Origin: Coriobacteriales bacterium
Lineage (GTDB): Bacteria > Actinomycetota > Coriobacteriia > Coriobacteriales > UMGS124
DNA: 64,000 nt
Assembly (NCBI GenBank): GCA_017515595.1
Contig: JAFWFL010000120.1
Coordinates: forward strand, 18,069-82,068
Direction of reading: 5' to 3'
Shown here: one piece after another, positions 1-37,535 of the stretch
Numbering within the stretch: position 1 is the stretch's first letter
Layout: every line of letters starts with the position of its first letter
Translations under genes and position numbers: made by a program
Notes under the pieces: model-generated
The model's database searches: none
The model's input: the letters and a program-made list of their open reading frames with translations, nothing else
Told to the model about the DNA's origin: nothing

Positions 1-1365
1 GGGCTGCCGCAGGTTTGTTTTGCGGCTTCCGGCGAGAATACTCGGCGCCGAGAAGTCCCTGATCATACGAGAAATACGGGCGTGTTGCGGAGTCGCTAAG
101 ACATCATGGGCGAGCACGTCTATGAGAGTATCCTCCTCGTAGGGTTGCCATGCGCCGGTGCGAAACAGCTCTTCGAGTCCGGTCCCGCCCAGGAGAACAC
201 AGGGATATAGCTTAATTTCATCAGGTGCAATAACGGGATTGGTAACAAAAGCTTCAAAGTCCTTCTCGTCAAGCCCGGGTGTTGAACCGGGAAGATTCAC
301 CATAAAGTGGGCATGGCTCTTAAACCCAAAAGCCCGGGCCAATTCGAATGCCTGCTCAAGCATGTGCGGCGTCGTAGGCCTGTGACATGCGTCTGAGATA
401 CTCTGGTTGAGTGTTTGAACACCCATCTGGAGTTTAGTGCAGCCCAATTGGCGCAAAAATGTGAGTGACTGTGCATTTACCGTTGCGGGGCGTATCTCAA
501 CCACAAGGCCAACCACACGGTGCGCAGCGTTTTCATTGCGGTGATGTTCTTGTTCAAGCTGATCGAGCGTGGCTGCTTGCCATGAAGCAATTGATTCCCA
601 TGCGGTTTTCTCACCATAGAGCATGGAATGCGCCTCGTTGTAGGTAAGCTCTTTCTTATTTACGCGCTCTTGCAGGCAGGCAGTTTGTTGCCGAATCGCT
701 TCGTCCTCGCGGAGTATGCCGGCTTGGACATACAGCCTTTCGCGCTCCTTAACAAGCTCGGTAAAGTTGGTTTGATCTGCATTGTTCAACGCTTTAAAGA
801 GCTCGGTGATAAACCATGTTTGGTAAGAAGACGGATAATCCAAAAACGTACCGCCCAGCACAATGAGCTCTATTTTATCGGTCGCATGTCCCATGACATT
901 AAGGGTATTGAGTCTGCGGGCGACCTGCAAAAACGGGTCAAAGAAGTTATACTCCGCGCGCTGGCATGCCGGTTCGTCGTGCATATAGCTTTTGGGCATA
1001 CGTATATCATTGGGGCAGTATATACATGAACCGCAACATGGATACGGTTTGGTAATGACCGTGATAGTTGCTACGCCTGAAGCGGTTCTCCGGGGCTTAA
1101 GCTGAATACTTGCCAACAGATTGCGCTCAAGGGTGCTGTCAATATTCCAGGCCTGCCACCGCATGGGTTCATGCTGCTTGATGACAAAGTAGAAGGGAGC
1201 GAGCTGCTTTTTGGTAAAATATTTATAAGGAACGTGATGCTCCTTGTTATGCTTTGAAATAAGATGATCCAAGACGTCGCCATCAAGGACGCCATGGTCA
1301 CGGATGCTCTTCAAAATGTCGAGTAACAGAGCTTCGAGCTCTTGTTCGCTGGGAAAAGTATTCAT
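1..1365 (-). CDS. Elp3-like radical SAM enzyme (N-terminal 455 aa; C-terminus beyond window start)
   Basis: It is absent from the ORF track because it runs off the window edge. Manual minus-strand translation from the ATG (complement of 1363-1365) gives MNTFPSEQELEALLLDILKS... and stays open to base 1. It contains CCGSCIYCPND (radical-SAM CxxxCxxC), ELIVLGGTF, VGLVVEIRP and GCTKLQMGVQTL, as in the Elp3 family. Confidence 0.7.
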   Translation of the reverse strand, partial: MNTFPSEQELEALLLDILKSIRDHGVLDGDVLDHLISKHNKEHHVPYKYFTKKQLAPFYFVIKQHEPMRWQAWNIDSTLERNLLASIQLKPRRTASGVATITVITKPYPCCGSCIYCPNDIRMPKSYMHDEPACQRAEYNFFDPFLQVARRLNTLNVMGHATDKIELIVLGGTFLDYPSSYQTWFITELFKALNNADQTNFTELVKERERLYVQAGILREDEAIRQQTACLQERVNKKELTYNEAHSMLYGEKTAWESIASWQAATLDQLEQEHHRNENAAHRVVGLVVEIRPATVNAQSLTFLRQLGCTKLQMGVQTLNQSISDACHRPTTPHMLEQAFELARAFGFKSHAHFMVNLPGSTPGLDEKDFEAFVTNPVIAPDEIKLYPCVLLGGTGLEELFRTGAWQPYEEDTLIDVLAHDVLATPQHARISRMIRDFSAPSILAGSRKTNLRQP

Positions 1366-1490
1366 AAATCAAGTATAGCACATGTTTTTTGCCGGGCTTA
1401 AGCACAGGATACTACAGAAAGATATAATTATAAACAACACGCTACGGTTCCTCGGTAAACAGGAGCAGATAAGAAAAGGAGGACAGAACG

Positions 1491-2297
1491 TTGATTGGTG
1501 CAATTTTGGGCGATATGATTGGCGCGCCGTATGAATTTGACCAGAGCAACAAAACCAAGGAGTTCCCGCTTTTTTGCCCGGATTCTCAGTTTACTGATGA
1601 CTCGGTTATGACCATTGCCGTGGCCGAAGCGCTCATGGATACGCTGAACATGTCAGACGAGAAGATCAGGGCTACCCTTATAGCGTCCATGCAAAAGTGG
1701 GGCAGGCGTTATCTTGACGCAGGTTATGGCTGGAATTTTTTCCAATGGCTGCAGGAGGATTATCCGGCGCCTTACCGGAGCTATGGCAACGGCTCAGCCA
1801 TGCGCGTGTCTTCTGCAGGCTGGCTGTTTGATGATTTGGCAACCACACGTCATGTAGCAAGGCTCACGGCTGAGGTCTCGCACAACCATCCTGAGGGCAT
1901 GAAAGGCGCCGAGTCAACAGCAAGTGCGATTTTTCTCGCCCGGAACGGCAGTAGCAAAGATGAAATCAAAAATTATATAATCAAAGAGTTTGGCTATGAC
2001 CTTTCGCGTACCTGTGATGAGATTCGCCCAACATATAAGCATGTCGAAAGCTGCCAGAAGACCGTTCCCGAGGCCATAACCGCCTTTTTGGAAGGAACTG
2101 ATTTTGAAGACGTCATTCGCACGGCGGTTTCGCTCGGCGGCGATTGCGACACGCTTACCTGCATTGCAGGCAGTATGGCTGAGGCTTTTTATGGTGTGCC
2201 TCAAGAGCTGGAAGCTGAATGCAAAAAGCGCCTCCCGGCCGATATGCTTGCGGTTTTAGACCGCTTCACCGCAATTGCACACGCAGATAAGCAATAA
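1491..2297 (+). CDS. ADP-ribosylglycohydrolase family protein
   Basis: 268-aa ORF with a TTG start after AAAGGAGGA. Its motifs are IGAILGDMIGAPYEF, YGNGSAMRVS and GGDCDTLTCIAGSMAEAFYG, typical of the ARH/DraG-like family. Confidence 0.85.
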   Translation: MIGAILGDMIGAPYEFDQSNKTKEFPLFCPDSQFTDDSVMTIAVAEALMDTLNMSDEKIRATLIASMQKWGRRYLDAGYGWNFFQWLQEDYPAPYRSYGNGSAMRVSSAGWLFDDLATTRHVARLTAEVSHNHPEGMKGAESTASAIFLARNGSSKDEIKNYIIKEFGYDLSRTCDEIRPTYKHVESCQKTVPEAITAFLEGTDFEDVIRTAVSLGGDCDTLTCIAGSMAEAFYGVPQELEAECKKRLPADMLAVLDRFTAIAHADKQ

Positions 2298-2325
2298 AAC
2301 CAGACACAACAGAAGGGGTTTTGCC

Positions 2326-2787
2326 ATGCTCTATTCAAACGATATGCAGCAGCTCGCCTATATAAGCCGCAAAGCCGGCGCCTTTGTGCGGGAGCATGAT
2401 CTCCTGACGCTCGAAAACGGCCGGTATGACCTTGGCGACGGAGACTACGTGAACGTCATGGAGTATACCTCCAAAACGAGAAGCGAAGGCAGTTATGAAT
2501 CGCATAAAGACTATGTTGACATACAGTGCGTTATCAAAGGAGAAGAATATCTCGAAGTTGCTCCGACAAGCGCTTTGTGTGTAACCAAGCCCTATGACGA
2601 AGCCGGCGACTATATGCTCTTTGACGGTGCATACAGCGGAGAAAAATACCTTTTGACTCCCGGACGTTTTTGCCTGGTCATACCAGATGATGCTCATATG
2701 CCGGGTGTCTCGCCAACCAATATCCCAGGCCCGGTAAAAAAGGCTGTCTTTAAAATACAGGTAAGCCATCTTGAGCCTATTGTATAA
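2326..2787 (+). CDS. YhcH/YjgK/YiaL (DUF386) family protein
   Basis: Start trimmed to the ATG at 2326 (AGAAGGGG upstream). The sequence MLYSNDMQQL...GDGDYVNVMEYTSK...HKDYVDIQCVIKGEE...DDAHMPG resembles the DUF386 cupin-like family. Confidence 0.75.
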   Translation: MLYSNDMQQLAYISRKAGAFVREHDLLTLENGRYDLGDGDYVNVMEYTSKTRSEGSYESHKDYVDIQCVIKGEEYLEVAPTSALCVTKPYDEAGDYMLFDGAYSGEKYLLTPGRFCLVIPDDAHMPGVSPTNIPGPVKKAVFKIQVSHLEPIV

Positions 2788-2894
2788 ACCTTTTATACTT
2801 CTGACTGTAAGTGTTCCGAGTACTGTCTGTACAAAGCCGGGAAGGACATCTGTAAGAAGGCGTTTATTCTCGGCAATACACCAAAGGAGTCCTT

Positions 2895-4556
2895 ATGAAA
2901 CAGCATGTATTCCATAGGGTAGGTCCGGGATTGGTGCTGGCTTTTATTGCGGCCGTAATTGTTTTATGCGCTGTCTTTGCGGTTCCGCTTGGTATGGCCG
3001 GCGAAGCATCCGGTGATTTTACGTATGAAATCAATGATGAGGGAACCATAACGCTCACGGCTTATACCGGCAGCGACTCAAACCCCGTCATTCCGCAGGA
3101 AATTGATGGTGTCTCCGTGACTCACATTGGCGAAAGCTGCTTTAGCGGCCTTTTGTGCATCAATAAGGTGCATATTCCCGAGGGCATTGTGAGCGTGGGC
3201 GATTATGCTTTTGAATGTTGTAATCTCCTGCAAAAGGTGTACTTCCCTGATTCTTTGATTTCCATTGGAGACGGCGCATTCTCAGGGTGTAATCACCTTG
3301 TTTTGGCAGATATGCAGGATGGTATTGAGTCAATTGGACGAGGAGCGTTTTTATACTGCTCGGCTCTGGTGAATCTTGATCTTCCGGCTAATCTTAAGAC
3401 GCTCGGTGATTTTGCATTTGCCATGTGCAGCGGTCTTATGAAAGTAACCTTTAACGGAGAATCGCTTGATACCTTGCCTGACCGCCTGTTTTACGAATGT
3501 TCAAATCTCACAAAAATCTCGTTCCCCAAAAGCATTACTCAGATTGGCAAGCGCACATTCTCCGGGTGTGGAAGCTTAACATACCTTTATTTTGCCAAGC
3601 CTCTCACGAGTATAGGAGAATACGCTTTTGAGCATTGTTCATCTCTGACCAGGGTCGAGTATACTGCAGATACAATTGGCAAAGGTGCGTTTTTTGGGAC
3701 ACAAATCGAGTCGCCTGATACCTCCGATGCTGATGATGACAGCGCAAACAATGATGCCGGGAATGCTCCGGCTCAGGAAGCATCTGCCCAGCAAGAGAGC
3801 ACTCAGGAAGATGCCGTTCCTGAGGCTCCCAAAACAATTGGTTCTTACGCGGGAGACAAGAGCCTTTTTGATGAGGACATGTTTAAGGATTATGTTGTTA
3901 TAAGCAATGACGACTTTGCTTCCTGGTGTGAGAAATACCTGGCCTGTAACAGCGACCCGGTACCGCTCAGCCGCGAAATAACACCCTATATCTTGCTCTA
4001 TAAGGCAGAGGTTATTCCCCGGTACCTCGCAATGGTAGCTGTTCAGAACCATGACCCGGCTCAGTGGGCAGAAGCGGTCAACCTATGCGGAGACGACTTT
4101 GAACAGATGTACCTCATGATTAACCACGGTCTCTTTACTGAACTCAGCCGCGGGAAAATGTGCGATAACCTGATTCTTTACAGCGGTGTTTATGACAGCC
4201 AGCTTGAAGCCGCAGCCGGCACCGACACGGTACCCACCCTTGACCAGCTGGCTGCGTCTGTGGGCAGGACTTTTGTTGATCCCGTCATGATAAGCACCAC
4301 CACGAGCATCGAGATAGCGTGTGGTTTCTCGGATACGCTTTTTATCATATATGCTTCACGTGAGTCCATGGAAGCGCTTGGTGCAGTATGCATTGATGCC
4401 TATTTGCATACTCGCGAAAACGAGATCCTCATGAGCGCCAACGCGACTTACAAGATTCTCGACGTTGGCACGATGGAAATTCAAACCGAGGATTACCAGG
4501 GCAATCCTCAAACTCTTGTTCGCGACTATCTTAAAGTAGAGCTGCTGCTTCCGTAA
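2895..4556 (+). CDS. Secreted/anchored BspA-type leucine-rich-repeat protein with a C-terminal ADP-ribosyltransferase-like domain
   Basis: N-terminal hydrophobic signal or anchor (GLVLAFIAAVIVLCAVFAV). Repeated IGxxAFxxCxxL units are BspA-like LRRs. The C-terminal region has FVDPVMISTTTS (STS-like) and RENEILM (ExE-like), spaced as in R-S-E class ARTs. Confidence 0.65.
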   Translation: MKQHVFHRVGPGLVLAFIAAVIVLCAVFAVPLGMAGEASGDFTYEINDEGTITLTAYTGSDSNPVIPQEIDGVSVTHIGESCFSGLLCINKVHIPEGIVSVGDYAFECCNLLQKVYFPDSLISIGDGAFSGCNHLVLADMQDGIESIGRGAFLYCSALVNLDLPANLKTLGDFAFAMCSGLMKVTFNGESLDTLPDRLFYECSNLTKISFPKSITQIGKRTFSGCGSLTYLYFAKPLTSIGEYAFEHCSSLTRVEYTADTIGKGAFFGTQIESPDTSDADDDSANNDAGNAPAQEASAQQESTQEDAVPEAPKTIGSYAGDKSLFDEDMFKDYVVISNDDFASWCEKYLACNSDPVPLSREITPYILLYKAEVIPRYLAMVAVQNHDPAQWAEAVNLCGDDFEQMYLMINHGLFTELSRGKMCDNLILYSGVYDSQLEAAAGTDTVPTLDQLAASVGRTFVDPVMISTTTSIEIACGFSDTLFIIYASRESMEALGAVCIDAYLHTRENEILMSANATYKILDVGTMEIQTEDYQGNPQTLVRDYLKVELLLP

Positions 4557-10300: not shown

Positions 10301-11130
10301 GCTTTTAACGCTGCGGTGGTTGACCCAAAGCTTGCGTTAATAGTGCCGAGAATAACTGCAAGCTCTTCATATGTAAGCAGCTTGTTTGCCTGTGCACGCT
10401 CAAGAGCGGCAAGGCCGCAAATGGGATCGGCCGCAAGGGCCTGGATTTTCTCGGCAACAGCCGGAGGCTTCTTTTTACCAATTTGATCGAGAACCATCTC
10501 GAGCGTTCCCACAAGGTCGGTAAGTGCATCATACACATCGCCTGCAAGGAGGTTCGCAGGGCGTGTAGGAGCGCCAAGATTGATGGCATTTGCACCATCC
10601 TGGACGCTGCTCATGGCGTTAAGCAACTGCTCAAGCATCTCGCGTACGTATGATGCGCTAAAAAGCTCAAAGAGGTGCGCGGTAGCATAGCCGCTTGATG
10701 CGATGGCTTCGTTTATGGCTTCGAGCATGAGATTGTTTTTATCAGTATCGTCAAGAATGCCGAACGCCGGATCAAACCCCAGCTCGAGAGCGTGATCATG
10801 GAGGATTCTCGAGCACATGCCGTGGATGGTGCTGATCCAGGCAGAGTCAACCTTAAGCGCCTGGTCAATAAGGCCGGCCGAGCGCAACGTAGAACGCACG
10901 CGTGCCTTGATTTCTGCGGCAGCGAGCTCGGTAAACGTGATGGCGAGAACGTCTTCGCTTATATCATGCACGCCGCTCTTCTCGGGGTGGAGCAGGACAT
11001 ACGCAATACGACGGGTGAGCATAAACGTTTTGCCGCTGCCTGCTCCGGCCGACACCAAAAGCGGCCCGTCAACGCACTCAACGCAGGTTTTTTGGCAAGG
11101 ATTCAGCCCGGCAACAAGATCAACGGCCAT
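7393..11130 (-). CDS. addA: AddA/RexA-like UvrD-family helicase-nuclease
   Basis: Start trimmed to the ATG at 11130, with AGGAGGA upstream. It overlaps the upstream gene's stop. Motifs are Walker A SAGAGSGKTF, VMVDEFQDTS and the C-terminal RecB-type nuclease GSIDLL...VIDYKTG...QAQCYAY. Confidence 0.85.
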   Translation of the reverse strand: MAVDLVAGLNPCQKTCVECVDGPLLVSAGAGSGKTFMLTRRIAYVLLHPEKSGVHDISEDVLAITFTELAAAEIKARVRSTLRSAGLIDQALKVDSAWISTIHGMCSRILHDHALELGFDPAFGILDDTDKNNLMLEAINEAIASSGYATAHLFELFSASYVREMLEQLLNAMSSVQDGANAINLGAPTRPANLLAGDVYDALTDLVGTLEMVLDQIGKKKPPAVAEKIQALAADPICGLAALERAQANKLLTYEELAVILGTINASFGSTTAALKAPVLEFKIIYYSTVTACKLGIAGQSKQELLQLALKTREFYTQKKRAIHKLDQDDLLQQALLALKNHESLARQYRDKFKLVMVDEFQDTSALQIAIISLLDGARDERLCTVGDTQQSIYRFRGADVDTYREHKRHMRGEAGATYQELGTNYRSHGDVIHFVNRVFAQERVFGRGSASEFIELDAAREHDNPCMPRIDMALITNAFNKAHTEERYRSEALYICDRFCKLHEGIISENGDTVHYNWGDMVILLGTTTFASLFANTLRERGIPCIVTGGSTFIKMPEAQTICTLAQAIANPLDDYAIKELLVSDMFGLDADELLSITALKRGGSSGLWHGIQELCKNADASSLPARIQLASDVLNNAVRRSRTMSPSRVLEYAVAESGWLNRLQQEGPQGTAQAANILKAIRVARSQEDNKPAQRGMSAVAERLAAKFSEDKGIKEKPGALNVSGQDAVRIMTIHASKGLEFPVVALAAFHNTLRDNNSLKLETIGGTIHMTLTPPSSVLDLYGTLSKTTNSTLSKALADYAKATGSEHLQTEEAPGNNPAETYDALSFYQAIIAHAQAGELAELRRKFYVGATRPREVLILAAEGASASQDKRELGQYYNSEIIEDIRHALVGPDRDFPNIPMQVDFGGDIPMTLTKIQIEVDELGVISTVDRPLQDYLVSDTMRNELLTSNASLETPQEQVNVSEPLDINTLLPLVLPCNPLRAGTFSYTMLSKHGDTSGAAETDPDEVAPESESPLNIDTESDAEPLEAAPHRYIDATSFGSAFHASAQWMAEKILATRTGANSFNEFDVSDYLPSNERLAQIARTWNLPVYGMPRLKAALSLWAHSSAAQAAYAYECLEPEASLYVTLLGHQGEPLRLEGSIDLLCHAAGSAQNSKALVIDYKTGGSPAETPEQLHEKHLLQAQCYAYAVLLQGYQSVDLCFVRVEVPDPSNPQEPQTVRYTYTHQDLPHLEQTLRDAQ

Positions 11131-14100
11131 TTTGTATCCTCCTTGGGCATTGTGCGGCGAGCGAGCAAAATGCGCATGAAGCCGAGCCAAAGCGCGGATT
11201 GGGCTCGATGTCGCCCATAAAAAGGTGCTCATGAATCGCCTCATAGGATACGGCTTCCAGAGCATCGAGTAGCTGGTCAAACGTGAGCGCAGGCAGAACC
11301 TGGTTGGTCAGACAATCATGCGTTAGCTTTTGTGATGAGAGAGGTATTGCGACACTCGGGTCAAGCATTCCGGTTACTTCAGGATAAGAATAACCCATAT
11401 AAAACGCACCGAGAGGAGCAGGCATTTGAGGAGCATTGCGTAATGCCGCAGCATACATGAGTATTTGCGTATGAAGCGGTAAGAGCGCTTTCGCTGCCTC
11501 GAGAGGGTCGTCTTGCGAGACGGCAAGCTCGAGAGCAGGGTCCTTTTGAACGTCCTTGGGCAAAGGCATGTGATGAGTGCCGTAGAGGCGTGATTTATAA
11601 TCAATAATGATGAGATTGCCCTGGTCATTCTTATCTATGCGGTCAATACGGCCTTTAAGCTTAACACCCCCAAAGGAGAGCGCCGGGATTGTACTGTCTT
11701 CGAGGCCAAATGACCATTCGTGAAGCCAGGGAACATAGCCCTCGGGGAGCTCGGCATCAAGCAAAAGACAGCCATAGATGTTCTTACGCAGCTGTTTTAG
11801 CTGGTATTCTTCAAGGCGGTCAACAGCGACCAACCGCGGATTGATGTCCTCATCCCGGTTTTTGTGAAGCGACACCTGGGTATCGAACTTCTCGGACACC
11901 AATAAATCAAGCGCAAGCGCGTTGGTGCGGTCCCGCAAAAAATCGTGGTCAATGCGAGGCGTACCGCGATTGGCAAGTTCGGTATGCACATCACACAAAA
12001 CCGCATGGCAAAACGCTCCTTTTTCGAGCGCGCCAAACTCTGCGTCAAGCCCGTCCTGCGGTATGCGCTGCTCATAAAACCACCTGGCAGGACAGCGCAA
12101 ATAGCCTTCAAGCACGCTCGGAGAAAGAGCCTTTTGCGGGTCAATTAAGAGCTCTTTAACAGAAGCCTGCCTTATCAAAAGCTCAGGAACAGGAGCCTTT
12201 TCCCAAGCACGGTCAAGGGCGCCAACCGGGCTCAGGACATCAGAGAACTCCTCCTCACCAATTTGAGGTTCCATTGCGAGCCGCCCATCTTTGGGGAGCC
12301 CGGTGAGCTTATCAAGTTCATCAATCTGTGTACTGTCAGGCCGGTAACAGTCAATAACCTCTTCAAAAAGCGCGCTCGGTCTTTCCTCAGAAGCAGCGTC
12401 GTTGTTAAGCGGACGCTCAAGTACAAAAAAGTCGCTCGCAGCCTCAAGTGCATTCATAAACTGCCAGCGCAGGTTATCAACAGGAGTTGCAAGAGGCACG
12501 AGCCCCTTATGAGCCAAAAACGTTTGAGCGGCATCGCCCTCAGCCTCAAGCGCATAATTCTGTGCAGTAAGCCCGCAAACAATCACAGCCTTAGCCTTGA
12601 TACTCTCGGCCTGGCCCAATGTCACTAAACGAACAGCATTGGGATTACCCGCAAGCACCGCAGCCTCCTTTTGCGCCGCAAGCGCCAGAGGAGGGAGATG
12701 TAAAAGCGTCTGAGAAACCCGCAGGCCTTCAAGCAGGCAGTCTGTGTATTCAGACAAATCAATGTCAAGGCTTAACGCATGAGCAAAGAGTTCATCCAAA
12801 GCAACCGCAGTTTTCCTGTCGAGAAGCTCCTGCGTGTTTTGAGGGTTTATCCCCGCAGGTAAAAGCCCGAGCATAAAAGCAGTAGCGCTCATATGGCCTT
12901 GGCGCATTTCTCTAAAAGTGCTCGCAGCTAACGGAGCATCTTCCTCGAGTGCCGTCTGTATGTCATCCAAATACGTACTGACATTCGCAAGTCTGTTGGC
13001 TCTCCAAGCAGCATCAAGCTCAAAAGTCCGGTAAACAGGAAGTCCCAAGAGGGGATTAAGCGCAAGATCAGTAGCCATGCTGCGATACTGAGGAGCAGGT
13101 TTTGTGTTGTCTTGTGTCGTTTGATCCTCTCGGAGAAGTACAAGCAGCGATGCAAGCAGCTTCCCGGCTGGAGTTGCCCCTACACTTTGCGATTCCCGTG
13201 CAATACAAGCTATATTATGAGCAGCAAGTCTCCCGCTCAGTGTCTGTGTGAGCGTGAACGGATCTTTGCAGATAACAGCAATATCGCGAGCTTTCAAAGG
13301 ATGATCAGGGTTTTCTATGAGCGAAGTAATGATGTTTGTAAGCGCCTGAGGTTCAGCATAAGCGCCGGTGGGCAAAACAAACCGCAAAGCGCCCGAAGGC
13401 GTGATAGCATGCCCGGGTGTAGGATGAAAGATCTCCTGTGCCAGTTCAGCAAGTTCAGTCGAGTTCCATGGTTTCTTTAGCTTGCCAGCAAACGAAAGCT
13501 CGTTTGTCTCAATAACTCGAACCGGAACTTGAGCCTCCCGAGCACAATCCAAAAGATACTCTGCGCAATTTTGTGCTTTAGTAGAAGCTGAAGTCTCATG
13601 ACCCGCATCATGCCTGGTCACAAACGTGACGCCCGCATGTGCTGCCGCAGCACATATCAGGTCAAAGTAAGAATGATCAAGCTCACTAATACCGTCAAGC
13701 ACCAGATGCTGCCAGCCACTACTGCCCATCATGTGAGGCAGTTTATGAGCAGCGCTGCAAAGCTCAATGTAACCATGACTGCTTAAGAGCTCATCATAGC
13801 GCTCAACAACCCTCTGAGCCTCAAATTCCGCAGGAGTCAAATCATCCCCGACTTGAACAGTTTCTCCCTCATATTCCGAAAGAGAACGCACGATTTTCTC
13901 GATAAAGGTAACCGTTCCAACAGCATGCGCATCAAGGTTTTTAAGGTCAGGAGTATCGAGCAAAGCCCTCAGCACAAACAATCGCCTCATCTGAGGCGTT
14001 ACCGGAGTCCTGCCATCGCCAAACAATTCCCAAAGCGACTGCACCCACTGTCCGGTTGTGGCTATTGTAAGCCCCAGTGTTTGAGCGCCACTGTTCGCAA

Positions 14101-14287
14101 GCCCCTGCGCAGTCCGAGTAACCAACTCAACCGAAGACATAAGCCGAACCGCGCGCCAAGATTTCTCAACAGCTTTTATACAAAGATCATCAGCAATATC
14201 ATGGCACATAAACAGCGTAGAAGCATTAACAACCGTAAGCCCCGGCTGTACAAGCAATTCTTCAATTGATCCAACGTTTACCGCCAT
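11120..14287 (-). CDS. addB: AddB/RexB-like nuclease subunit
   Basis: 1055 aa with no N-terminal Walker A. The C-terminus has a PD-(D/E)XK motif (GRIDRIDK...LIIIDYKS) and a Cys cluster (YLRCPARW ... CAFCSLAAQC). It is translationally linked to the addA-like gene, and GGAGG precedes its ATG. Confidence 0.75.
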   Translation of the reverse strand: MAVNVGSIEELLVQPGLTVVNASTLFMCHDIADDLCIKAVEKSWRAVRLMSSVELVTRTAQGLANSGAQTLGLTIATTGQWVQSLWELFGDGRTPVTPQMRRLFVLRALLDTPDLKNLDAHAVGTVTFIEKIVRSLSEYEGETVQVGDDLTPAEFEAQRVVERYDELLSSHGYIELCSAAHKLPHMMGSSGWQHLVLDGISELDHSYFDLICAAAAHAGVTFVTRHDAGHETSASTKAQNCAEYLLDCAREAQVPVRVIETNELSFAGKLKKPWNSTELAELAQEIFHPTPGHAITPSGALRFVLPTGAYAEPQALTNIITSLIENPDHPLKARDIAVICKDPFTLTQTLSGRLAAHNIACIARESQSVGATPAGKLLASLLVLLREDQTTQDNTKPAPQYRSMATDLALNPLLGLPVYRTFELDAAWRANRLANVSTYLDDIQTALEEDAPLAASTFREMRQGHMSATAFMLGLLPAGINPQNTQELLDRKTAVALDELFAHALSLDIDLSEYTDCLLEGLRVSQTLLHLPPLALAAQKEAAVLAGNPNAVRLVTLGQAESIKAKAVIVCGLTAQNYALEAEGDAAQTFLAHKGLVPLATPVDNLRWQFMNALEAASDFFVLERPLNNDAASEERPSALFEEVIDCYRPDSTQIDELDKLTGLPKDGRLAMEPQIGEEEFSDVLSPVGALDRAWEKAPVPELLIRQASVKELLIDPQKALSPSVLEGYLRCPARWFYEQRIPQDGLDAEFGALEKGAFCHAVLCDVHTELANRGTPRIDHDFLRDRTNALALDLLVSEKFDTQVSLHKNRDEDINPRLVAVDRLEEYQLKQLRKNIYGCLLLDAELPEGYVPWLHEWSFGLEDSTIPALSFGGVKLKGRIDRIDKNDQGNLIIIDYKSRLYGTHHMPLPKDVQKDPALELAVSQDDPLEAAKALLPLHTQILMYAAALRNAPQMPAPLGAFYMGYSYPEVTGMLDPSVAIPLSSQKLTHDCLTNQVLPALTFDQLLDALEAVSYEAIHEHLFMGDIEPNPRFGSASCAFCSLAAQCPRRIQNGR

Positions 14288-14307
14288 GCCATGCCTCCGT
14301 AAAACAT

Positions 14308-14562
14308 GATTTTGTTTTTGATAGAGTTTGGAGGTGCTGATGAATTTGATTTAAGTTTTGCCGGGGACGAGTATTATCTTTCCGAGCGTCTCTGTACGCG
14401 CGGTTGCATAGACACGGCCCGAGTAGAGAAGACGCTAAAGTAGTATGGGAGCCGCGTCGTTCATGCAACCCGCGGCAGGCTAGCGAGGAAAGATAATACT
14501 CGTCCCCGGCAAAACTTAAATCAAATTCATCAGCACCTCCAAACTCTATCAAAAACAAAATC
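14308..14562. repeat. Perfect 76-bp inverted repeat (arms 14308-14383 and 14487-14562) around a 103-nt unique centre
   Basis: I reverse-complemented the left arm base by base and it is identical to the right arm (76/76). It lies 7 nt past the icd stop and 20 nt before the addB start. Confidence 0.95.
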
Positions 14563-14569
14563 CCCCAGG

Positions 14570-15772
14570 TTAACCCTCGAGCATGTCTCGAATAGCCAAA
14601 ATAAACTCTCGGCTGTTAAGCACCTGAGGATTCTCAATACTGGTTATCAGCGCAAGATCTTTAGTCATCTTTCCGCTTTCGATTGTGGCCAGCGTCGCCC
14701 GCTCAAGTCTGTTCGCAAAGTCCACAAGCTCAGGCAGCTGATCAAGCTCTCCGCGCTTGCGCAATGCACCGGTCCAGGCAAAGATTGTTGCAACCGAGTT
14801 GGTCGAGGTTTCTTCGCCCTTAAGATAGCGGTAATAGTGGCGTTGTACCGTACCGTGAGCGGCTTCATATTCCCAGCAGCCTTGCGGAGAAACCAGCACA
14901 GATGTCATCATCGCGAGGCTTCCGAATGCGCTCGAGACCATGTCGCTCATAACGTCGCCGTCATAGTTTTTGCAAGCCCAGATAAAGCCGCCCGGGGACT
15001 TCATCACACGAGCAACCGCGTCATCAATGAGCGTATAGAAGTAAACGATGCCGGCTTCCTTGAACTTCTCGGCATACTGAGCGTCATAGATTTCCTGGAA
15101 GATGTCCTTAAAGCGGTGGTCATAGGTCTTTGAGATAGTGTCTTTTGTTGCAAACCAGAGATCCTGCTTGCTGTCGAGCGCGAAACTAAAGCATGCATGG
15201 GCAAAGCTTGCGATTGAGTTGTCGAGGTTGTGCATGCCCTGAGCAACACCGGGTCCTTCAAAGCGGTGGACAAGCTCGCGAGTCTCGGTACCGTCGTCGG
15301 CTGTGTACACAAGCTCGACTTTGCCCGGGCCGGGTATGCGCATCTCGGTGTTGCGGTAGACGTCGCCATAGGCATGGCGGGCGAGAGTGATGGGCTTTTG
15401 CCAGTTGCGCACGTTGGGCTCAATGCCCTTGACAAGGATGGGCGCCCTGAATACCGTGCCGTCAAGCGCTGCGCGAATGGTCCCGTTGGGGCTCTTCCAC
15501 ATGGATTTGAGGCCGTACTCCTCAACGCGCGCGGCGTTTGGGGTAATGGTGGCGCACTTAACAGCAACACCCAGGCGCTGAGTTGCCCGGGCGGACTCGA
15601 GCGTTACAGCGTCGTCAGTGTTGTCGCGATTCTTAAGACCCAGGTCATAATACTCGGTCTTGAGGTCGACATAGGGGCAAATGAGATTATCCTTAATCAT
15701 TTGCCAGAGGATACGCGTCATTTCATCGCCATCCATCTCGACAAGCGGGGTGGTCATTGCAATCTTTGCCAT
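14570..15772 (-). CDS. icd: NADP-dependent isocitrate dehydrogenase (IDH1/2-like homodimeric type)
   Basis: Start trimmed to the ATG at 15772 (GGAAAGGAAC upstream). The sequence [23 protein letters not shown]...KCATITPN...NYDGDVMSD is typical of this family. Confidence 0.9.
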
Positions 15773-15794
15773 GAAAAAGTTCCTTTCCGGGGGA

Positions 15795-17348
15795 TTATGC
15801 ATCCTGTGACGTGGTCTTTTTGGTGCGGGGTTTACGTTTGGATTTTGATTTGGTTGTTAATGACGGAGCGTTGTCTTTGTCAGCGGGAGACTCCTGAGCA
15901 TCTGCTGTCTCTTGTAGTGATTGTTCTCCCTCGTTAGCCGTGGTATTCTCGAGAATCTCAACTTCAGACTCCTCGCTTGCGGCGTCTTCTTCCTGTGCAT
16001 GGAGCTCTTTAAAGAGCGCCGTCATGGTAGGATTGCCGCGAGTGAGTTTTTTGATGGTAAGATCCTCTGCCCTGCGGTTAGCGAGCTCAAGATTGCGCTC
16101 AGACCCAACAAGCGACTCCCTGACCTTCATAAGCTGTTCAATTGTTTTGTCAATGTCTTCTATAGCCTTTGCGAACTTCTTGCTTGCCTGCTCATAGTTG
16201 TAACCAAATTTTGTTTTAAAGTCCTCGAGCTTCGCCTCAAAGTTGGTGACATCCAAGGATTGTTGCTGGGCTTTGGCGAGCTCGCTCTTGTAATGGAGCG
16301 AATTGAGCGCGGCGTTGCGCAAAAGCGTGATGAGCGGGATAAAAAACTGAGGCCGTACCACGTACATCTTGGGGTAACGGTACGAGACATCCACAATGCC
16401 CGTGTTATAAAGTTCGCTCTCAGGCTCAAGCAGCGAGACAAGCACCGCGTATTCGCAGTTCTTTTTGTTGCGGTCTTCGTCAAGCTTCTTAAAGTGTTCC
16501 TCGTTCTTTTTGTGGCGTGTACCGGTGTCGTCCTCGTTTTTCATTTCGAACATGATCGAGATGAACTCAGTTCCGTCTTCGCCCGATTCCCTAAAAATGT
16601 AGTCGCCCTTGGTGCCGCCAATGACGTCGTTGTCTTTTTCGAAGTAAGCGTGGGGGAAGGCGGTCATACGCAGCTGGTTAAAGGCGATTTCGCAGTGCTG
16701 CTCGAGGCTCTCGCCGAGCATCTTGGTAGACAGTTTTGCCTTCATGTCGCGAATGCGCTCGATTTCGCGGTCGCGCTCGGCAATCTGCTCATCTTTGGCT
16801 TTGAGTTTCTCGGCCAGCTCTACCTGGTGTGCTGCCTGCGCGCGGGCGTTCTCGGTTTTTTGCTGTTCAAGACGGGCGGTGAGGGCGTCGCACTGACGCT
16901 GCAGCTCAAACTGGGCCTCCTTCATGGTCTGGGTTGCTTCCTGAACCGCAAGCGATTGCTGAGCCTGCGCCTGGTTCTTTTGAGCGCTCAGTTCTGTTTG
17001 AGCTGCGGTTATCTTGGCCTCAAGCTGGGCTTTGAGCAAATTGGCTTCATTTGAAAGCTCAAGCCTGGTCTTCTCGACAGCTTCGTCTTTTTGCGCGGTA
17101 ATGATCGCGAGCTGCGATTTAAGCTCGGTAATTTGTTGTTCGCTCTGTGCGAGTTCCTGCTTCAGAGACTCCTGGGCTTTAGAAACAGCAAGCTCACGGG
17201 CCTGTTCCTGCTCAACTCTAAGATGAGCTTCCCGGTCTTTAAGAGCGCGCGTAAACTCGGCATCGCGCACCTGCGCAACAATTTGTGTCCAGCCGCTTTC
17301 ATCAACGGTAAATGCTTCGCCACAGTGAGGACATTTAATCTGATTCAT
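15795..17348 (-). CDS. DUF2130-like protein (zinc ribbon, coiled coil, conserved C-terminal domain)
   Basis: N-terminal [13 protein letters not shown], then a long Q/A/E-rich coiled coil and a conserved C-terminal region ([10 protein letters not shown]...FEMKNE). The tail is K-rich. Confidence 0.65.
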
Positions 17349-23203: not shown

Positions 23204-23319
23204 GATAGTGCTATTAATCTTATAAATGATATACAAAACAAATCTATCGTTTCCTGATTTAATATGCAATTTGTGTTACTATGTACGTGGTAACAATGGC
23301 AGCAATAAAAGAGGAAGGC

Positions 23320-25356
23320 ATGAGCATGCAAACCATCACCCGCAGATCATTTGTTGGACTTATTGGAGCAACGGCGGTATCAGCTGCGTTAGGCACAGTA
23401 GAAGCTTTTGCATCAGAAAGCCGCCAAGCCAACGCAGCCAGTGATTTTGAGTTTGTGGAAAGTGATGGGTATATTATTATCACAGGTTATGTTGGGCAGG
23501 CAGAAGAAGTTGTGATCCCCAGAAGCATAAATGGCAATTTGGTTATTGCAATATGGGATGAGGCATTTTATAAAAAGACTGCTCTTTTTAGCATAGAGTT
23601 ACCAAAAGGTATGACATACATAGGTGATCGCGCTTTTGCAGGATGTGTTTCTCTTGAGACAGTTGTTTTACCGCAACGTTTGTTCCATATAGGTGAGTCA
23701 GCTTTTGAGGGGTGCACATTTCTTGAAGAGATTGATTTACCCGAAAGTATGACAGAGCTTGGCGATCGCGCATTTGCAAATACATATCTTTCAAGGGCTA
23801 CTATTCCTGACGGTGTAGTCTACGTCGCAGAAAATGCTTTTCCTAAGAACTGTCAGCTCAAGCGTTCAAACGGTTCAGATGTTGTGCTGTATACACCGTT
23901 CTCGGAATTGGTGGTATATAATGGTGGTATAGCAGGTTATAACGGTAATAGTGCTAACTTGAGGATTTATCCTGTAACCGCGGATAATACTGAGATTACA
24001 GCAATACTTAACGGAGCTTTCAAGAATAATAAAACACTTAAAACAATTATTATACCGGAAAACGTACGTAAGATCGGTGCTTCAGCTTTCGAAGGATGTA
24101 CATCTCTTGAAAAGATTAATCTGCCCGGAAAACTTGTGTCTCTTGGTAACCGTGCATTTGCAGGTTCTGGACTCGTTGATATTTCGCTGCCAGGGACTCT
24201 GACCCAACTCGGAGATTATGTTTTTGCGCAAACTAAACTGACCGAAGCAGTTGTTCCCGTAACGGTTGGATATGTGTCAGAAGGCACTTTCCCTGAAGAA
24301 TGCCGAATTATATATTCTGATGGATCAGAAATAGTGTTGTATACACCGTTTTCTCAACTAATACTTAATGGTGATGGTATTGCTGACTATACCGGGAGTA
24401 TTGTTGACTTGAGAATCTATCCTGAAACACCTGATGGAGTGAGTATCACGAAGATTCTCAGCGGAGCTTTTAGGAATAATGATAAATTAAGATCAGTTAT
24501 TCTCCCTCAGGGTTTACGTGAAATCGAAACCTCAGCATTCAAAGGCTGTATATCGCTTAAAGAGATTACACTTCCAAATTCGCTGGGAACAATAGGACGT
24601 TTTGCTTTTGATGGATGCACATCTCTTAATGAGGTAGTTATACCCGATAGTGTCAAAAATATATCTTCCGGTATATTTCCATCAACTTGTAGATTATTAA
24701 GAGCTAATGGCGAAGTGATTGTAATAAAGCTGATACAACCATGTGGCACCGACAGCCAAACAGGTTTGTCAATGATTACATTTGGCCAATACCAGCAAAC
24801 AAACAATAGTTTCGAACTGATTCAGTGGCTTGTTCTTGAAGAACGCGAAGATGGTACAGCACTACTCTTGAGCAAATATGCACTCGATTGCAAGCGTTAT
24901 AATAATAAATATGAAGATACAACATGGGCAGATTGTGGTCTTAGAACTTGGTTGAACAATCAATTCTTAAACTCCGCTTTTAGTGCTGAGGAGCAACAAC
25001 TAATTAAGACAACTCACCTGGAAAATAAGAGCAATCCTGAATATGGCACGAAGGGTGGCGTAGCCACAGATGATCAGGTATTTCTTTTGAGTTATGATGA
25101 GATTAAGAGATACTTTGGCGCTGCTCCCCGTGATACCGAGGAGAAGCTGATTGCTTACCCAACTCAATATGCTAAGAGTCAGGGAGTTAGTACAGATAAC
25201 TCTGGCGCGTGCGTCTGGTGGCTCCGCTCGCCGGGCAGCAGCTCGTCCGACGCGGCGCTCGTCCTCAGCAACGGCTACGTGTACTCCCTCGGCTGGGGCG
25301 TCAACTACTCCGACTACGGCGTCCGTCCCGCTTTGGTTGTGAATCTTAAATCTTAG
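23320..25356 (+). CDS. DGR target protein: Tat-like signal, BspA-type LRRs, DUF6273-like/C-type-lectin-fold C-terminus carrying the VR
   Basis: Start at the ATG at 23320 (AAAGAGGAAGG upstream). The signal is MSMQTITRRSFVGLIGATAVSAALG. LRR units are present as an internal duplication. The C-terminus has IQWLVLEEREDGTALLLSKYALD...TWLN... and then CVWWLRSPG...GVRPALVV, which covers the VR. Confidence 0.9.
   Translation: MSMQTITRRSFVGLIGATAVSAALGTVEAFASESRQANAASDFEFVESDGYIIITGYVGQAEEVVIPRSINGNLVIAIWDEAFYKKTALFSIELPKGMTYIGDRAFAGCVSLETVVLPQRLFHIGESAFEGCTFLEEIDLPESMTELGDRAFANTYLSRATIPDGVVYVAENAFPKNCQLKRSNGSDVVLYTPFSELVVYNGGIAGYNGNSANLRIYPVTADNTEITAILNGAFKNNKTLKTIIIPENVRKIGASAFEGCTSLEKINLPGKLVSLGNRAFAGSGLVDISLPGTLTQLGDYVFAQTKLTEAVVPVTVGYVSEGTFPEECRIIYSDGSEIVLYTPFSQLILNGDGIADYTGSIVDLRIYPETPDGVSITKILSGAFRNNDKLRSVILPQGLREIETSAFKGCISLKEITLPNSLGTIGRFAFDGCTSLNEVVIPDSVKNISSGIFPSTCRLLRANGEVIVIKLIQPCGTDSQTGLSMITFGQYQQTNNSFELIQWLVLEEREDGTALLLSKYALDCKRYNNKYEDTTWADCGLRTWLNNQFLNSAFSAEEQQLIKTTHLENKSNPEYGTKGGVATDDQVFLLSYDEIKRYFGAAPRDTEEKLIAYPTQYAKSQGVSTDNSGACVWWLRSPGSSSSDAALVLSNGYVYSLGWGVNYSDYGVRPALVVNLKS
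25204..25332 (+). other. DGR variable region (VR)
   Basis: This 129 bp aligns without gaps to 26501-26629. There are 17 mismatches, all opposite TR adenines. It is in frame with the target ORF. Confidence 0.95.
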
Positions 25357-25437
25357 ATTTGTGAATCTTGAACAAGTATGGTTTATAACACTTCATATTT
25401 CTAGTAACTGAAATGCATTAGGAGATGTTAAACAAGA

Positions 25438-26073
25438 ATGATTAATAACTTAGTTAACAATGGCCTGAACTTAACTGAATGGATCGAGAACAATAATCAT
25501 TGCCATATTGAAGGTTTTGAGAAAGACCTAATAGGAGAGTTCCTTCTCAGTTCTCCTGCATTAGAAGTTACAGCGCGTTCAAATGGTTTTATAGAAAGAT
25601 TCAAAATAGTTGATTCGGTAGGAGCTGATGTTTTATTCAATCATTTAACGAGAGATATAGATTTGTGCTTAGTATTAGATAGTTCAGAAAAACTCAAAGA
25701 TAAACTAGAGGAGAAAAAACTCCTATATAAACATTTTTGGGAAAAAAGCGAATTCATCTTAATGACGTGTAATGTTCCAAATAATATTGAGAACTATATA
25801 AAAGAGAATTATTGTGTAAAGCATACTGGATTAGCTAAGGAGCGCAATAAAATGGTCCTTACAAGTTATAAAAGGCTCGATGCGCTATTCCGACATATTC
25901 GTAATTCGCTAGCACATGGGTTATACAGCTCTTTTGGTGAAGATGATAATCAAATATGGGTATTTCAAGACCATAACCAGGATCAAAACATATCGGCACG
26001 GTTAGTATTAAAACAGAAAAGAATACACGATTGGATAACTGACTTCTGTAGATTTGAAACTGAAGGTGTTTGA
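25438..26073 (+). CDS. Hypothetical protein with a C-terminal Rx4H (HEPN-like) motif, inserted inside the DGR
   Basis: 211-aa ORF preceded by AGGAG. It contains LFRHIRNSLAHGLY (R-N-x-x-x-H). It is markedly AT-rich; one 60-nt line I counted was 18/60 G+C. Confidence 0.45.
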   Translation: MINNLVNNGLNLTEWIENNNHCHIEGFEKDLIGEFLLSSPALEVTARSNGFIERFKIVDSVGADVLFNHLTRDIDLCLVLDSSEKLKDKLEEKKLLYKHFWEKSEFILMTCNVPNNIENYIKENYCVKHTGLAKERNKMVLTSYKRLDALFRHIRNSLAHGLYSSFGEDDNQIWVFQDHNQDQNISARLVLKQKRIHDWITDFCRFETEGV

Positions 26074-26074
26074 T

Positions 26075-26479
26075 ATGTTTGATGGCTCGTACAACGAGCT
26101 TTCCGTTATTACTCATGCTAAAGAACTCTGCTCATACGTGCTGACGGTTACCCAGAAGTCACCCAAGCACTTTCGCTATACGTTTGTAAGCAGGTTACAG
26201 AACCTTGCACTTGATGTGGTTGAGCAGTTGTTTCGAGCAAATGAGGTGTTTGTTAAAAGGGGAGATGCTCGTGCAGCAGCGAAGCGTATCGAGCACCAGC
26301 GGAATGCCTCGACGAGTTTGAAACTTCTCATCTATATGGCACAAGTTGCTTATGAGCAGGGATGCATCCTTATGAAGCAATATGAACAGATTTCTACGCT
26401 CGGTCTTGATTGCAGGAGGGAACTGGGAGCATGGATTAATTCTGATAAAAAGCGGTTCCACTCCGACGAGGAGATGTAA
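26075..26479 (+). CDS. avd: DGR accessory variability determinant (Avd; four-helix-bundle protein)
   Basis: About 134 aa, starting at the ATG at 26075 (a TTG at 26054 is also possible). The helical sequence SVITHAKELCSYVLTVTQKSPKHFRYTFVSRLQNLALDV...ANEV resembles Avd and the 23S-IVS four-helix-bundle family. It sits immediately 5' of the TR. Confidence 0.8.
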   Translation: MFDGSYNELSVITHAKELCSYVLTVTQKSPKHFRYTFVSRLQNLALDVVEQLFRANEVFVKRGDARAAAKRIEHQRNASTSLKLLIYMAQVAYEQGCILMKQYEQISTLGLDCRRELGAWINSDKKRFHSDEEM

Positions 26480-26500
26480 CTGGGGGATTTGACTGTGACA

Positions 26501-26629
26501 GGCGCGTGCAACTGGTGGCTCCGCTCGCCGGGCAACAGCTCGTCCAACGCGGCGAACGTCAACAGCAACGGCAACGTGAACTCCAACGGCTGGAACGTCA
26601 ACAACTCCAACAACGGCGTCCGTCCCGCT
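26501..26629 (+). ncRNA. DGR template repeat (TR)
   Basis: In the VR reading frame it contains 14 AAC codons and 30 adenines in total. It is identical to the VR except at 17 adenines. It lies between avd and the RT. Confidence 0.95.
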
Positions 26630-26824
26630 CAGCCCTGACGGCCAGAAGCTTAACCCTAAGGAGGGAAGCCCGAGTCCAGGGAGAAGGAGTCAAATTCCTG
26701 CCTTACCGCGTGAGGCAAATAAAAGCCAATGGGAGCGTGTTACGTCACGAGCTTAACACCTGGAGCAGAAAGCACCTGTCCCATTGGCATTTTAACTGAA
26801 CGTCACGGAACAAGGATACTGGGT

Positions 26825-27823
26825 ATGGCGGAGCCATTACCAACATTTAAAGATGTCTATGAGTTCAAAAATCTCTATGATGCTCATATGAAGGCGCGCC
26901 GAGGCAAGCGCAACAGACGCGAGGTCATAGATTTTGAGCTCAATTTAGGGTATAACCTGGCTGAGTTATCGCAATTGCTTAAAGACGGCACATATCATCT
27001 TCAGCCGTATACGCGTTTTGTAGTGACTGATCCAAAGCGCAGAGTAGTACACGCGCTCTGTTACAGAGACCGAGTGATCCAGCATTCTTTGTGTGACAAC
27101 GTTGTTGGAACTATCATTGATCCAAGGCTAATTTATGACAATGCGGCGTGTCGCAAAAATAAAGGTGCTCATTTTGCCCTCAACAGGCTCGAAGGGTTTC
27201 TCGGCAGCTATTATAAAGATTATGGAAACCAGGGGTACTTTTTGAAGTGCGATATCAGACACTACTTCGCGAGTATAAATCATTGTGTGCTTCAAGACAA
27301 ATTGCTAAGATGCCCATTTGATGTTCGCACCAGGGAGTTTTTAGGATCAATAATTAATAGTTACCAAGAGGATCCGAACAAAGGTTTGCCTCTTGGTAAT
27401 CAAACAAGCCAATGGTTTGCGCTCTATTATCTCGACAGTCTCGATAGGCTGATTAAAGAACGTTTACAAATAAAAGGTTATGTACGTTATATGGATGACT
27501 GTATACTTATCCACCACGATAAATATATCCTAACGCAGTGCCTGCGAGCGATGCGATGGCATATAACCGCTCTCGGCTTAGAGTTTAATAATAAAACACA
27601 GATAGCACCATTAAAAAACGGAATAGATTTCTTAGGCTGGCACTTCTATTTGACCAATACCGGTAAGGTAATTCGCAAACTCAGACAGTCAGCCAAGCAC
27701 CGCATCAAGAGAAAACTCAAGCAACTGGAACATGCGGAGCCGCAATATGCGGCTATAGTACGAACAAGCATAAAAGCACACTTAGCTTATGGTAATACCG
27801 GTTGGTTACAGTATGGTTGGTAA
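26825..27823 (+). CDS. DGR reverse transcriptase
   Basis: Start at the ATG at 26825. It has the YMDD catalytic motif and LPLGNQTSQWFALYYL, the [I/L]GxxxSQ motif characteristic of DGR RTs. Its size (332 aa) and its position 3' of the TR also fit. Confidence 0.9.
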   Translation: MAEPLPTFKDVYEFKNLYDAHMKARRGKRNRREVIDFELNLGYNLAELSQLLKDGTYHLQPYTRFVVTDPKRRVVHALCYRDRVIQHSLCDNVVGTIIDPRLIYDNAACRKNKGAHFALNRLEGFLGSYYKDYGNQGYFLKCDIRHYFASINHCVLQDKLLRCPFDVRTREFLGSIINSYQEDPNKGLPLGNQTSQWFALYYLDSLDRLIKERLQIKGYVRYMDDCILIHHDKYILTQCLRAMRWHITALGLEFNNKTQIAPLKNGIDFLGWHFYLTNTGKVIRKLRQSAKHRIKRKLKQLEHAEPQYAAIVRTSIKAHLAYGNTGWLQYGW

Positions 27824-30836: not shown

Positions 30837-30837
30837 G

Positions 30838-32454: not shown

Positions 32455-33245
32455 TTTGATAGCGCCGCTAATTGGATCTGCCGATTCAGAATCAACCGAG
32501 AGTGCGAGCGTAGCATATGATGCCCTGTTAAAATAGACTCCGAGCCAGGAATTAGCAACAGTACCGTCACGGCGAGAGCAATAAGGATGCCGCGTCCAAT
32601 CCATCTCAAAACTTTTTGTCTTGTGAGTTTTTTCGCATAGCGGTCTGAAGCTTCCAGATAATCAAGTATGCCTTGTATTTGGGCTCGTAAATACTCATCT
32701 CTTTGCTTGGCCAGGTTTGTCTCGAAAGCCTCCCGGTATTGCTTTATGTCTTTGCGGTTTGTGAGCAGATCGCCCTCGTAACCCGCAATAGCCCAGCTTT
32801 TGTACCTCAACATCAGGTGATTTTTTATTGTATAAAACTGGGGATCCGTTGTAAGTGAATCAAGAATGTTCAAATAAAGTTTGTCATCAATCCTAATAAA
32901 ATTGATTTCTTCCAAAACAGGAGGCATTACCATTGGATCGTTAAAATTTACTGTTTCGATACCGCAGTCAACCGGTATAAACCTGACATTCTGTGCGCTT
33001 GCATCTATAAAGTTGCGCCAGTCACGGTTTGCGGTCGCCGCATCAGATACGAATACAATGACAGAATCCATGGCGATGTTCTGCCGGGTTATGAGATGCT
33101 GCCGTACACACCCGCTTGCTGTTACATCAGACTCCCGGTCTTTCTCGGCAACACCGGATTGCTGCAGCCACTCGAGAGTACCAATGCCCCACGTTGCGCA
33201 TGAACTCTCGTATATCACCTCAATATAATGGGTTACTGTGTCCAT
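32451..33245 (-). CDS. Degenerate TIR-like domain protein with a C-terminal TM helix
   Basis: Start at the ATG at 33245 (GGAGAAGG upstream) rather than 33293. By eye, HYIEVIYESS...DSVIVFVSDAATANRDWRNFID aligns to the TIR region of 28593-30836 but lacks the Glu. The TM helix is RWIGRGILIALAVTVLLLIPG. Confidence 0.5.
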   Translation of the reverse strand: MDTVTHYIEVIYESSCATWGIGTLEWLQQSGVAEKDRESDVTASGCVRQHLITRQNIAMDSVIVFVSDAATANRDWRNFIDASAQNVRFIPVDCGIETVNFNDPMVMPPVLEEINFIRIDDKLYLNILDSLTTDPQFYTIKNHLMLRYKSWAIAGYEGDLLTNRKDIKQYREAFETNLAKQRDEYLRAQIQGILDYLEASDRYAKKLTRQKVLRWIGRGILIALAVTVLLLIPGSESILTGHHMLRSHSRLILNRQIQLAALSK

Positions 33246-35400: not shown

Positions 35401-35421
35401 CTGAGAGTATGACAGGGGACT

Positions 35422-37468: not shown

Positions 37469-37535
37469 AACTATGACCCGTCTCCTGTTCATTGGGATAA
37501 AGATGAGAGCCACACGCTGCTTTGGTCAGAGGTTG

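Follow-up and report, generated by a model that had tools for sequence, protein, structure and literature searches.

A perfect-armed quasi-palindrome between icd and addB in an uncultured gut Coriobacteriales bacterium, possibly formed in place

How does a perfect inverted repeat with arms of 76 nt come to lie between two bacterial genes, and what, if anything, does it do there? The question is raised by the space between icd and addB in an uncultured gut bacterium of the order Coriobacteriales, which belongs to an isolated lineage (its nearest Icd relative is 83% identical and its nearest AddB relative 39%). The DNA that we analysed is a stretch of 64 kb, to which we refer as the window and from which all coordinates are taken. 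Our answer is given with some hesitation: the element is perhaps best regarded as a genuine, apparently single-copy quasi-palindrome that was formed in place. We infer both its origin by template switching and its role at the level of RNA.

The inverted repeat and its surroundings

The two genes had been called icd and addB in a reading made from the letters of the DNA alone (hereafter the sequence-only reading), and both calls hold. The 410-aa product of the upstream gene scores 663 bits against the profile NF006156, for which the cut-off is 335, and matches positions 1-399 of the 403 in the model, with an intact C-terminus. The downstream gene overlaps the start of an addA-like gene, which encodes a UvrD-type helicase-nuclease and ends at 7393. 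Judging by their sequences, the 1055-aa nuclease and the UvrD-type helicase-nuclease are an AddAB-like pair, with the qualification that the AddB-like protein falls below the NCBIfam cut-off for AddB. The surrounding genes stand close together, with overlaps of 8 nt (DUF2130 and icd) and 11 nt (addB and addA). The DUF2130-icd transcription unit has the element at its 3' end, and the locus is composed of the following features.

11120-14287, minus strand: addB-like gene for a PD-(D/E)XK nuclease subunit (1055 aa, by domain match), the downstream gene
14288-14307, minus strand: 20-nt spacer between the element and the addB ATG, which holds the addB Shine-Dalgarno sequence and ATGTTTTAC
14308-14383, no strand: addB-proximal arm, 76 nt, 36.8% GC
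14384-14486, no strand: GC-rich centre of 103 nt (60.2% GC), an imperfect palindrome by its predicted fold
14487-14562, no strand: icd-proximal arm, the exact reverse complement of 14308-14383
14563-14569, minus strand: 7-nt spacer from the element to the icd stop codon, without complementarity to the other flank
14570-15802, minus strand: icd, NADP-dependent isocitrate dehydrogenase (profile NF006156), the upstream gene

The arms had been described as complementary at all 76 positions, and both the repeat finder and a pattern search agree with this: they are 100% complementary and, with the 103 nt between them, make up an element of 255 nt. The distances of 7 nt to the icd stop codon and 20 nt to the addB ATG are likewise as first reported. 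When the whole window is searched for the arm pattern with up to three mismatches, the only two sites are the arms themselves, with 0 expected in shuffled sequences; the longest perfect inverted-repeat arm in 20 shuffled windows was 11-14 nt, as opposed to the 76 nt observed. The Shine-Dalgarno sequence of addB is GGAGG (CCTCC at 14294-14298 of the plus strand), and the run ATGTTTTAC stands directly 3' of the hairpin on the minus strand.

The base composition of the element is uneven. The GC content is 36.8% in the arms (32.7% in their outer 55 nt), 60.2% in the centre and 49.4% in the window as a whole; the centre is thus like the stem of a terminator in this respect, and the arms are like spacer DNA. 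Each arm further carries the same short arrangement, namely GGAGG, five nucleotides and then ATG AAT TTG ATT TAA. In the addB-proximal arm it is found on the plus strand (GGAGG at 14330-14334, the codons at 14340-14354) and in the icd-proximal arm on the minus strand (GGAGG at 14540-14536, the ATG at 14530-14528). It has the form of a strong ribosome-binding site followed by an ORF of four codons, one in each arm.

The 7-nt spacer next to icd is not complementary to the other flank, hence the outer boundary of the repeat is sharp; so is the inner one. The inverted repeat does not run on into a palindromic duplication. The sequence-only reading had seen no target-site duplication and we find none either: the flanks, ...GTAAAACAT (...AAAACAT) and CCCCAGGTT... 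(CCCCAGG...), have no direct repeat in common at the junctions, not even one as short as 2 nt.

The centre is predicted to fold into an imperfect hairpin with 28 pairs and an asymmetric apical loop of 28 nt (14421-14448), with energy z-scores of -2.4 (minus strand) and -1.8 (plus strand). It scores 6 for self-complementarity, compared with -11 +/- 6.7 in shuffles, and 66 of its 103 positions, about 64%, are the same in its reverse complement. Given that the centre is itself an imperfect palindrome, all 255 nt fold as one hairpin with a loop of 28 nt; for the whole, the predicted RNA fold has an energy of -193 kcal/mol (z = -22.5) and the DNA fold one of -111 kcal/mol (z = -24.5). Two pairings within the centre had been pointed out before. 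Both exist, although the position of one partner needs a correction by one base: agcgtct is at 14385-91 and agacgct at 14430-36, and gcggttgcat (14400-09) pairs with atgcaacccgc (14463-73) with one bulged C. It is the latter pairing, not the former, that the minimum-free-energy fold uses. No Rfam match was obtained up to E = 1 on either strand between 13800 and 15100.

Support from independent assemblies and the number of copies

Perfect palindromes are a known artefact of short reads, and all data on this element come from short-read metagenome assemblies. Could the palindrome be a chimera produced by the assembler or during library preparation, as the sequence-only reading feared? The Icd protein is recorded on two ENA contigs. 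One of them is the 59.9-kb contig k141_1987580 of ERZ28018703; over 13.2 kb, 6 SNPs separate it from the window, and it carries the identical element, with its centre in the same orientation. In the assembly of the other, ERZ28653837 (SAMN15830013), the locus is divided between scaffold_3389, which breaks off at window position 14508, and scaffold_2419, which begins at 14362; at the break, each of the two retains exactly the outer 55 nt of its own arm. Such breaks would be expected of a de Bruijn graph with k=55 where a genuine inverted repeat exceeds k in length and the graph branches at the outer boundary. At the outer boundary of the repeat, one and the same 55-mer terminates both flank scaffolds, in opposite orientation, hence reads from both flanks must enter the same arm sequence. 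A Logan contig with k=31 (SRR12529301), probably built from the reads of the ERZ28653837 sample, appears from its coordinates to end 30 nt into the addB-side arm. For the inner 21 nt of the arms and for the centre, support comes only from the two assemblies that read through the element.

Both flanks are, moreover, unique and the gene order is colinear. Since an identical element is present in an assembly that differs by SNPs, and a third assembly shows the 55-nt breaks, an assembly artefact is unlikely, and taking all points together we regard a chimeric palindrome as extremely improbable. The earlier concern is therefore largely set aside by one identical independent assembly and one k-mer break per arm. 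Perfect inverted repeats of this kind matter to others who work with metagenomes, as assemblies with k=31 and k=55 break at precisely this site and small ORFs are called spuriously, for example a 45-aa 'gene' in ENA.

Some further observations on these assemblies may be added. A third sample (SAMN15830014) has yielded scaffold_32932 of ERZ28655101, which matches window positions 1233-4098 with 99.1% identity (13 mismatches, 2 gaps) and whose gene calls differ downstream of the ADP-ribosylglycohydrolase gene. This match means that a more divergent strain of the organism exists, and this strain might serve as a comparator for the palindrome if its icd-addB region were assembled. By arithmetic on the coordinates, the two ENA assemblies end their contigs at nearly the same places, at about 41616/41750 of the window and about 18.1 kb upstream of the window start, which suggests repeats or strain-variable boundaries there. 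No sequence identical to that of the aminotransferase gene at 43046-44269 is on record, and a look-up of the AddA protein of the window returned no record.

A count of copies by BLASTN had been proposed in the sequence-only reading. We covered 72.5 kb of the organism, that is the window and 8.5 kb further to its left, with blastn at low stringency (word size 7), and one copy only was found. Low-stringency blastn found no copy in the corresponding loci of relatives, exact 21-24-mers of the arm and the centre have no match in GTDB species genomes, JGI metagenomes or IMG/VR, and the whole icd-addB spacer has no blastn match among plasmids and phages. Further, the MEGAHIT contig of ERZ28018703 (k=141) crosses the whole 255 nt, as a contig would normally fail to do if there were an identical second copy; this speaks against other identical copies in that metagenome.

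Searches at the level of protein were also carried out with the ORFs of the element. An ORF of 98 aa on the minus strand (14262-14558) spans the whole element, and one of 45 aa on the plus strand (14306-14443) lies inside the palindrome; the latter is called as a gene in ENA (P0003), on a single contig. The 98-aa ORF has no relatives among 5.8 billion clustered proteins, and in a full HMMER search of 1.84 billion representatives its sole true match is the 45-aa ORF of the element itself; three further weak matches are TPR/repeat proteins and spurious. With neither a Pfam domain nor homologues, both ORFs are best treated as spurious, and we reject the idea that they are coding.

Origin of the perfect arms

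The reading that we favour, and in which our confidence is limited, is that the element is the hairpin at the 3' end of icd, that template switching has recently homogenised its outer arms or lengthened them, and that it now acts as an insulator at the end of the transcript. The starting point would be a GC-rich imperfect hairpin downstream of icd, at the position where relatives have the icd terminator. A template switch during replication would then perfect the outer arms, extend them, or both: the nascent strand would snap back on the hairpin and copy its own first arm outward. Gene conversion from arm to arm would be an alternative route to this outcome. From either process one would expect an old, imperfect inner stem, outer arms of 76 nt without mismatches, sharp boundaries, no target-site duplication and no other copy.

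Several observations speak for such an origin in place. The perfect tract adjoins an imperfect inverted repeat, as it should in a product of template switching, and the intergenic DNA of the window has other unusually long perfect hairpins and inverted repeats. The earlier suggestion that the perfection of the arms reflects a recent event also gains support, with homogenisation as the alternative to recency, from the combination of perfect, sharp-edged outer arms with an imperfect core. The correction of quasi-palindromes by replication template switching is reportedly the subject of a model by Ripley and of work from the Lovett laboratory on E. coli hotspots. Template switching homogenises and expands the arms of inverted repeats (PMC8604942), and passages in PMC13100816 and PMC7202029 likewise speak of inverted repeats being homogenised and enlarged by it. 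Our element resembles such quasi-palindromes, namely those of the yeast work on homogenisation (PMC8604942) and those in the same passages of PMC13100816 and PMC7202029, in that an imperfect hairpin is combined with a perfect tract, in a single copy, with sharp edges and no target-site duplication. The mechanism needs no protein encoded by the element.

There are also points against it. The converted tract would be at least 76 nt, whereas the documented tracts are usually a few to a few tens of nucleotides, and it is longer than those described in the literature cited above. No outgroup is at hand with the ancestral state (nearest AddB 39%, nearest Icd 83%, synteny lost). The two bases just inside each arm (TC/TC on the minus strand) do not pair; it is thus not evident how a snap-back could have been primed exactly at the present boundary, and the switch would have had to occur within the tract that is now perfect. 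Microhomology at the inner and outer junctions, which could be a footprint of a template switch, amounts to a 2-nt 'TC' at the return junction, and this is uninformative. Finally, the hairpin is not a canonical terminator. If the template-switch origin is nevertheless true, the locus represents an unusually large natural expansion of an inverted repeat in a bacterial chromosome that has become fixed in wild populations. It would also be one that is tolerated despite an effective loop of about 28 nt, and it bears on the stability of palindromes in this lineage.

The main rival explanation, which in our opinion is somewhat unlikely, is that we are dealing with a single-copy foldback or MITE-like non-autonomous element with 76-bp terminal inverted repeats, which was recently inserted at the compact icd-addB junction and has no local function or an incidental one. 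Its termini are indeed perfect, its outer boundaries are sharp, and its arms, with 37% GC, stand out against the 49% of the genome. Conceptual excision reduces the present spacer of 282 bp to one of 27 nt with a good Shine-Dalgarno sequence, amid overlapping genes; such a tidy junction resembles the result of an insertion into a compact operon, and it counts against formation in place. A family of few copies may exist as well: at a density of one per 50 kb, the 72.5 kb searched would be expected to contain no more than about 1.5. On the other side stand the lack of a target-site duplication and of any other copy in these 72.5 kb or in the public collections, whether searched by DNA or by ORF, and the passage of the k=141 assembly through the element, which makes an identical copy unlikely. 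The window encodes no transposase with matching ends; the only candidate is a PDDEXK_2 (Rpn-like) protein 20 kb away. Except for the inverted termini, then, this explanation comes without any positive hallmark of a mobile element. A MITE-like insertion was what the sequence-only reading had considered, and with no second copy in the 72.5 kb or the searchable collections and no transposase in the window it has gained no positive evidence.

A comparison with known families leads in the same direction. The Correia/NEMIS, ERIC, RUP and BOX elements and the REPINs are multi-copy, and they mostly combine terminal inverted repeats of about 10-40 bp with a target-site duplication or with a cognate transposase or RAYT; perfect terminal repeats of 76 bp around a palindromic interior are atypical of bacterial MITEs. 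Our element is like these families in its size class of 100-300 bp, in its intergenic position between co-directional genes, in the long hairpin formed upon transcription, and in possible processing by RNase III or use as a transcript end. It is unlike them in that no second copy, duplication or transposase was found, and in that its arms are perfect and 76 bp long. The element belongs to no named family. It is an orphan intergenic quasi-palindrome or foldback. We also considered attC, dif, telomere-resolution sites and sso origins and dropped them, since the size, symmetry and context of the element speak against them.

The end of the icd message and other structures in the window

What could the element do at its present place? 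The next relatives of Icd, at most 83% identical, are from Slackia, Adlercreutzia and the Eggerthellaceae. In Slackia and Adlercreutzia a canonical GC-rich hairpin with a T-run follows icd within about 40 nt, hence the palindrome occupies the position of the transcript end in this lineage, and an insulation of addBA from read-through out of icd is plausible. A transcript arriving from the icd side would contain the 255 nt as a hairpin of about -190 kcal/mol with a perfect 76-bp duplex. This hairpin would end or protect the icd message, be it by weak termination at AUGUUUUAC, by blocking 3'-exonucleases or by offering a substrate to double-strand-specific RNases, and the icd message would thereby be separated from addBA. 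That the element defines or protects the 3' end of icd and keeps icd apart from addBA would be the most economical guess at a function. Cleavage by RNase III, insulation and extrusion of a cruciform, all of which the sequence-only reading had brought up, are consistent with the predicted fold.

The likeness to terminators goes only part of the way. As in intrinsic terminators and 3'-stabilising hairpins, a stable hairpin with a short U-run comes directly after the stop codon; unlike in terminators, the stem is about 5-10 times longer and AU-rich at its base, and the inner hairpin has a loop of 28 nt. Where relatives have a canonical terminator, there is a stem of 76 bp with an inner stem on top, followed by AUGUUUUAC with a U-run only 4 long. 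The terminator scanner reports nothing between icd and addB, and no sigma-70-like promoter is found in 14308-14562; consensus scans are not enriched over shuffles in this genome, which makes both scans weak tests.

The promoter scan bears on another possibility, namely that the element is an inverton, in which the 103-bp centre flips between the 76-bp repeats and thereby switches the transcription of addBA on and off. We regard this as very unlikely. Like the invertons of gut bacteria, a short segment between perfect inverted repeats stands directly upstream of an operon, the host is of the gut/rumen type, and recurrent inversion or recombination would keep the arms perfect. Unlike in invertons, the arms exceed the usual length, the segment comes close to symmetry (with 66 of 103 positions identical to its own reverse complement, a flip changes little), and the centre has the same orientation in both assemblies that resolve it. 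Neither a promoter, by the weak scan just mentioned, nor a nearby recombinase was found, as no recombinase or integrase domain occurs in the scanned ORFs of at least 120 aa in the 64-kb window.

It could also be imagined that the arms are actively maintained as a working structure, either a long double-stranded RNA or a cruciform that gates read-through from icd into addBA, or a switch that works by recombination between the arms. To us this seems quite improbable. If true, the structure would represent an unrecognised class of giant-hairpin cis-regulators in Coriobacteriales, of which the hairpins at 35420-35485 and 37524-37889 of the window, described below, could be further examples.

A cis-element tied to AddAB and DNA repair, for example a cruciform or hairpin by which expression of the hairpin/DSB-processing nuclease is sensed or regulated, is in our view highly improbable. 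Its position 20 nt upstream of addB is the one point in its favour, and the sequence-only reading had called this position curious. The adjacency of icd and addB is, however, absent in Slackia and Adlercreutzia, and no recognisable operator, of the LexA type or other, was seen. No relative of the AddB protein was found in GTDB species genomes. The protein database contains one distant relative, with 39% identity, from a Coriobacteriia MAG; there Fic and Metallophos genes precede addB, and the inverted repeats upstream are of 8-11 nt only, which is chance level. A special link to AddAB is thus unsupported, and with icd-addB synteny not conserved, the available data offer no orthologous site for comparison.

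Apart from the element at the end of icd, the window holds several other palindromic structures. A perfect stem of 28 bp with a 10-nt loop (35420-35485) lies about 150 nt downstream of the gene for the PDDEXK_2 protein, an Rpn-like 'transposase' (34342-35271), and far exceeds the usual stem of a terminator. A second large inverted repeat at 37524-37889 is located between genes for a FAD-dependent reductase and an ICMT-like protein. It consists of five copies (three forward, two reverse) of a motif of about 27 nt, TGGCAAAAAGGTGACGATTYGTTGTC, around an AT-rich core (37690-37785), and has 72-nt arms (37535-37876) that are 89% complementary. This could be an operator array or another palindromic element, and it has no sequence relation to the element between icd and addB. 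At 42978-43019 there is an intergenic palindrome with arms of 21 nt (90% complementary). Between two minus-strand genes, at 33268-33419, two arms of 30 nt (90% complementary) enclose a spacer of 92 nt; the right arm of this inverted repeat and the adjoining spacer contain, on the minus strand (33400-33373), the best sigma-70-like match of the window, TTGACA-16-TATCAT with an upstream TG (11 of 12 positions).

Further, the window carries a complete diversity-generating retroelement (DGR) at 23281-27823.

23281-25356: target gene of the DGR, BspA-type LRR/DUF6273, with its VR at 25204-25332
26054-26479: bAvd-like gene
26501-26629: TR
26729-27823: reverse transcriptase

TR and VR differ at 17 of 129 positions, all of which are adenines in TR. 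A link of the palindrome to a retron or DGR was considered on account of this reverse transcriptase and rejected: the enzyme is 12 kb away and is part of the DGR just described, which is complete and classical, has a TR and a VR of its own and is unconnected to the palindrome. Next to the DGR, at 28593-32604, a gene whose 753-aa product combines an N-terminal TIR domain with WD40/beta-propeller repeats overlaps one for a 588-aa protein without a family match, and the two may be a defence-type gene pair.
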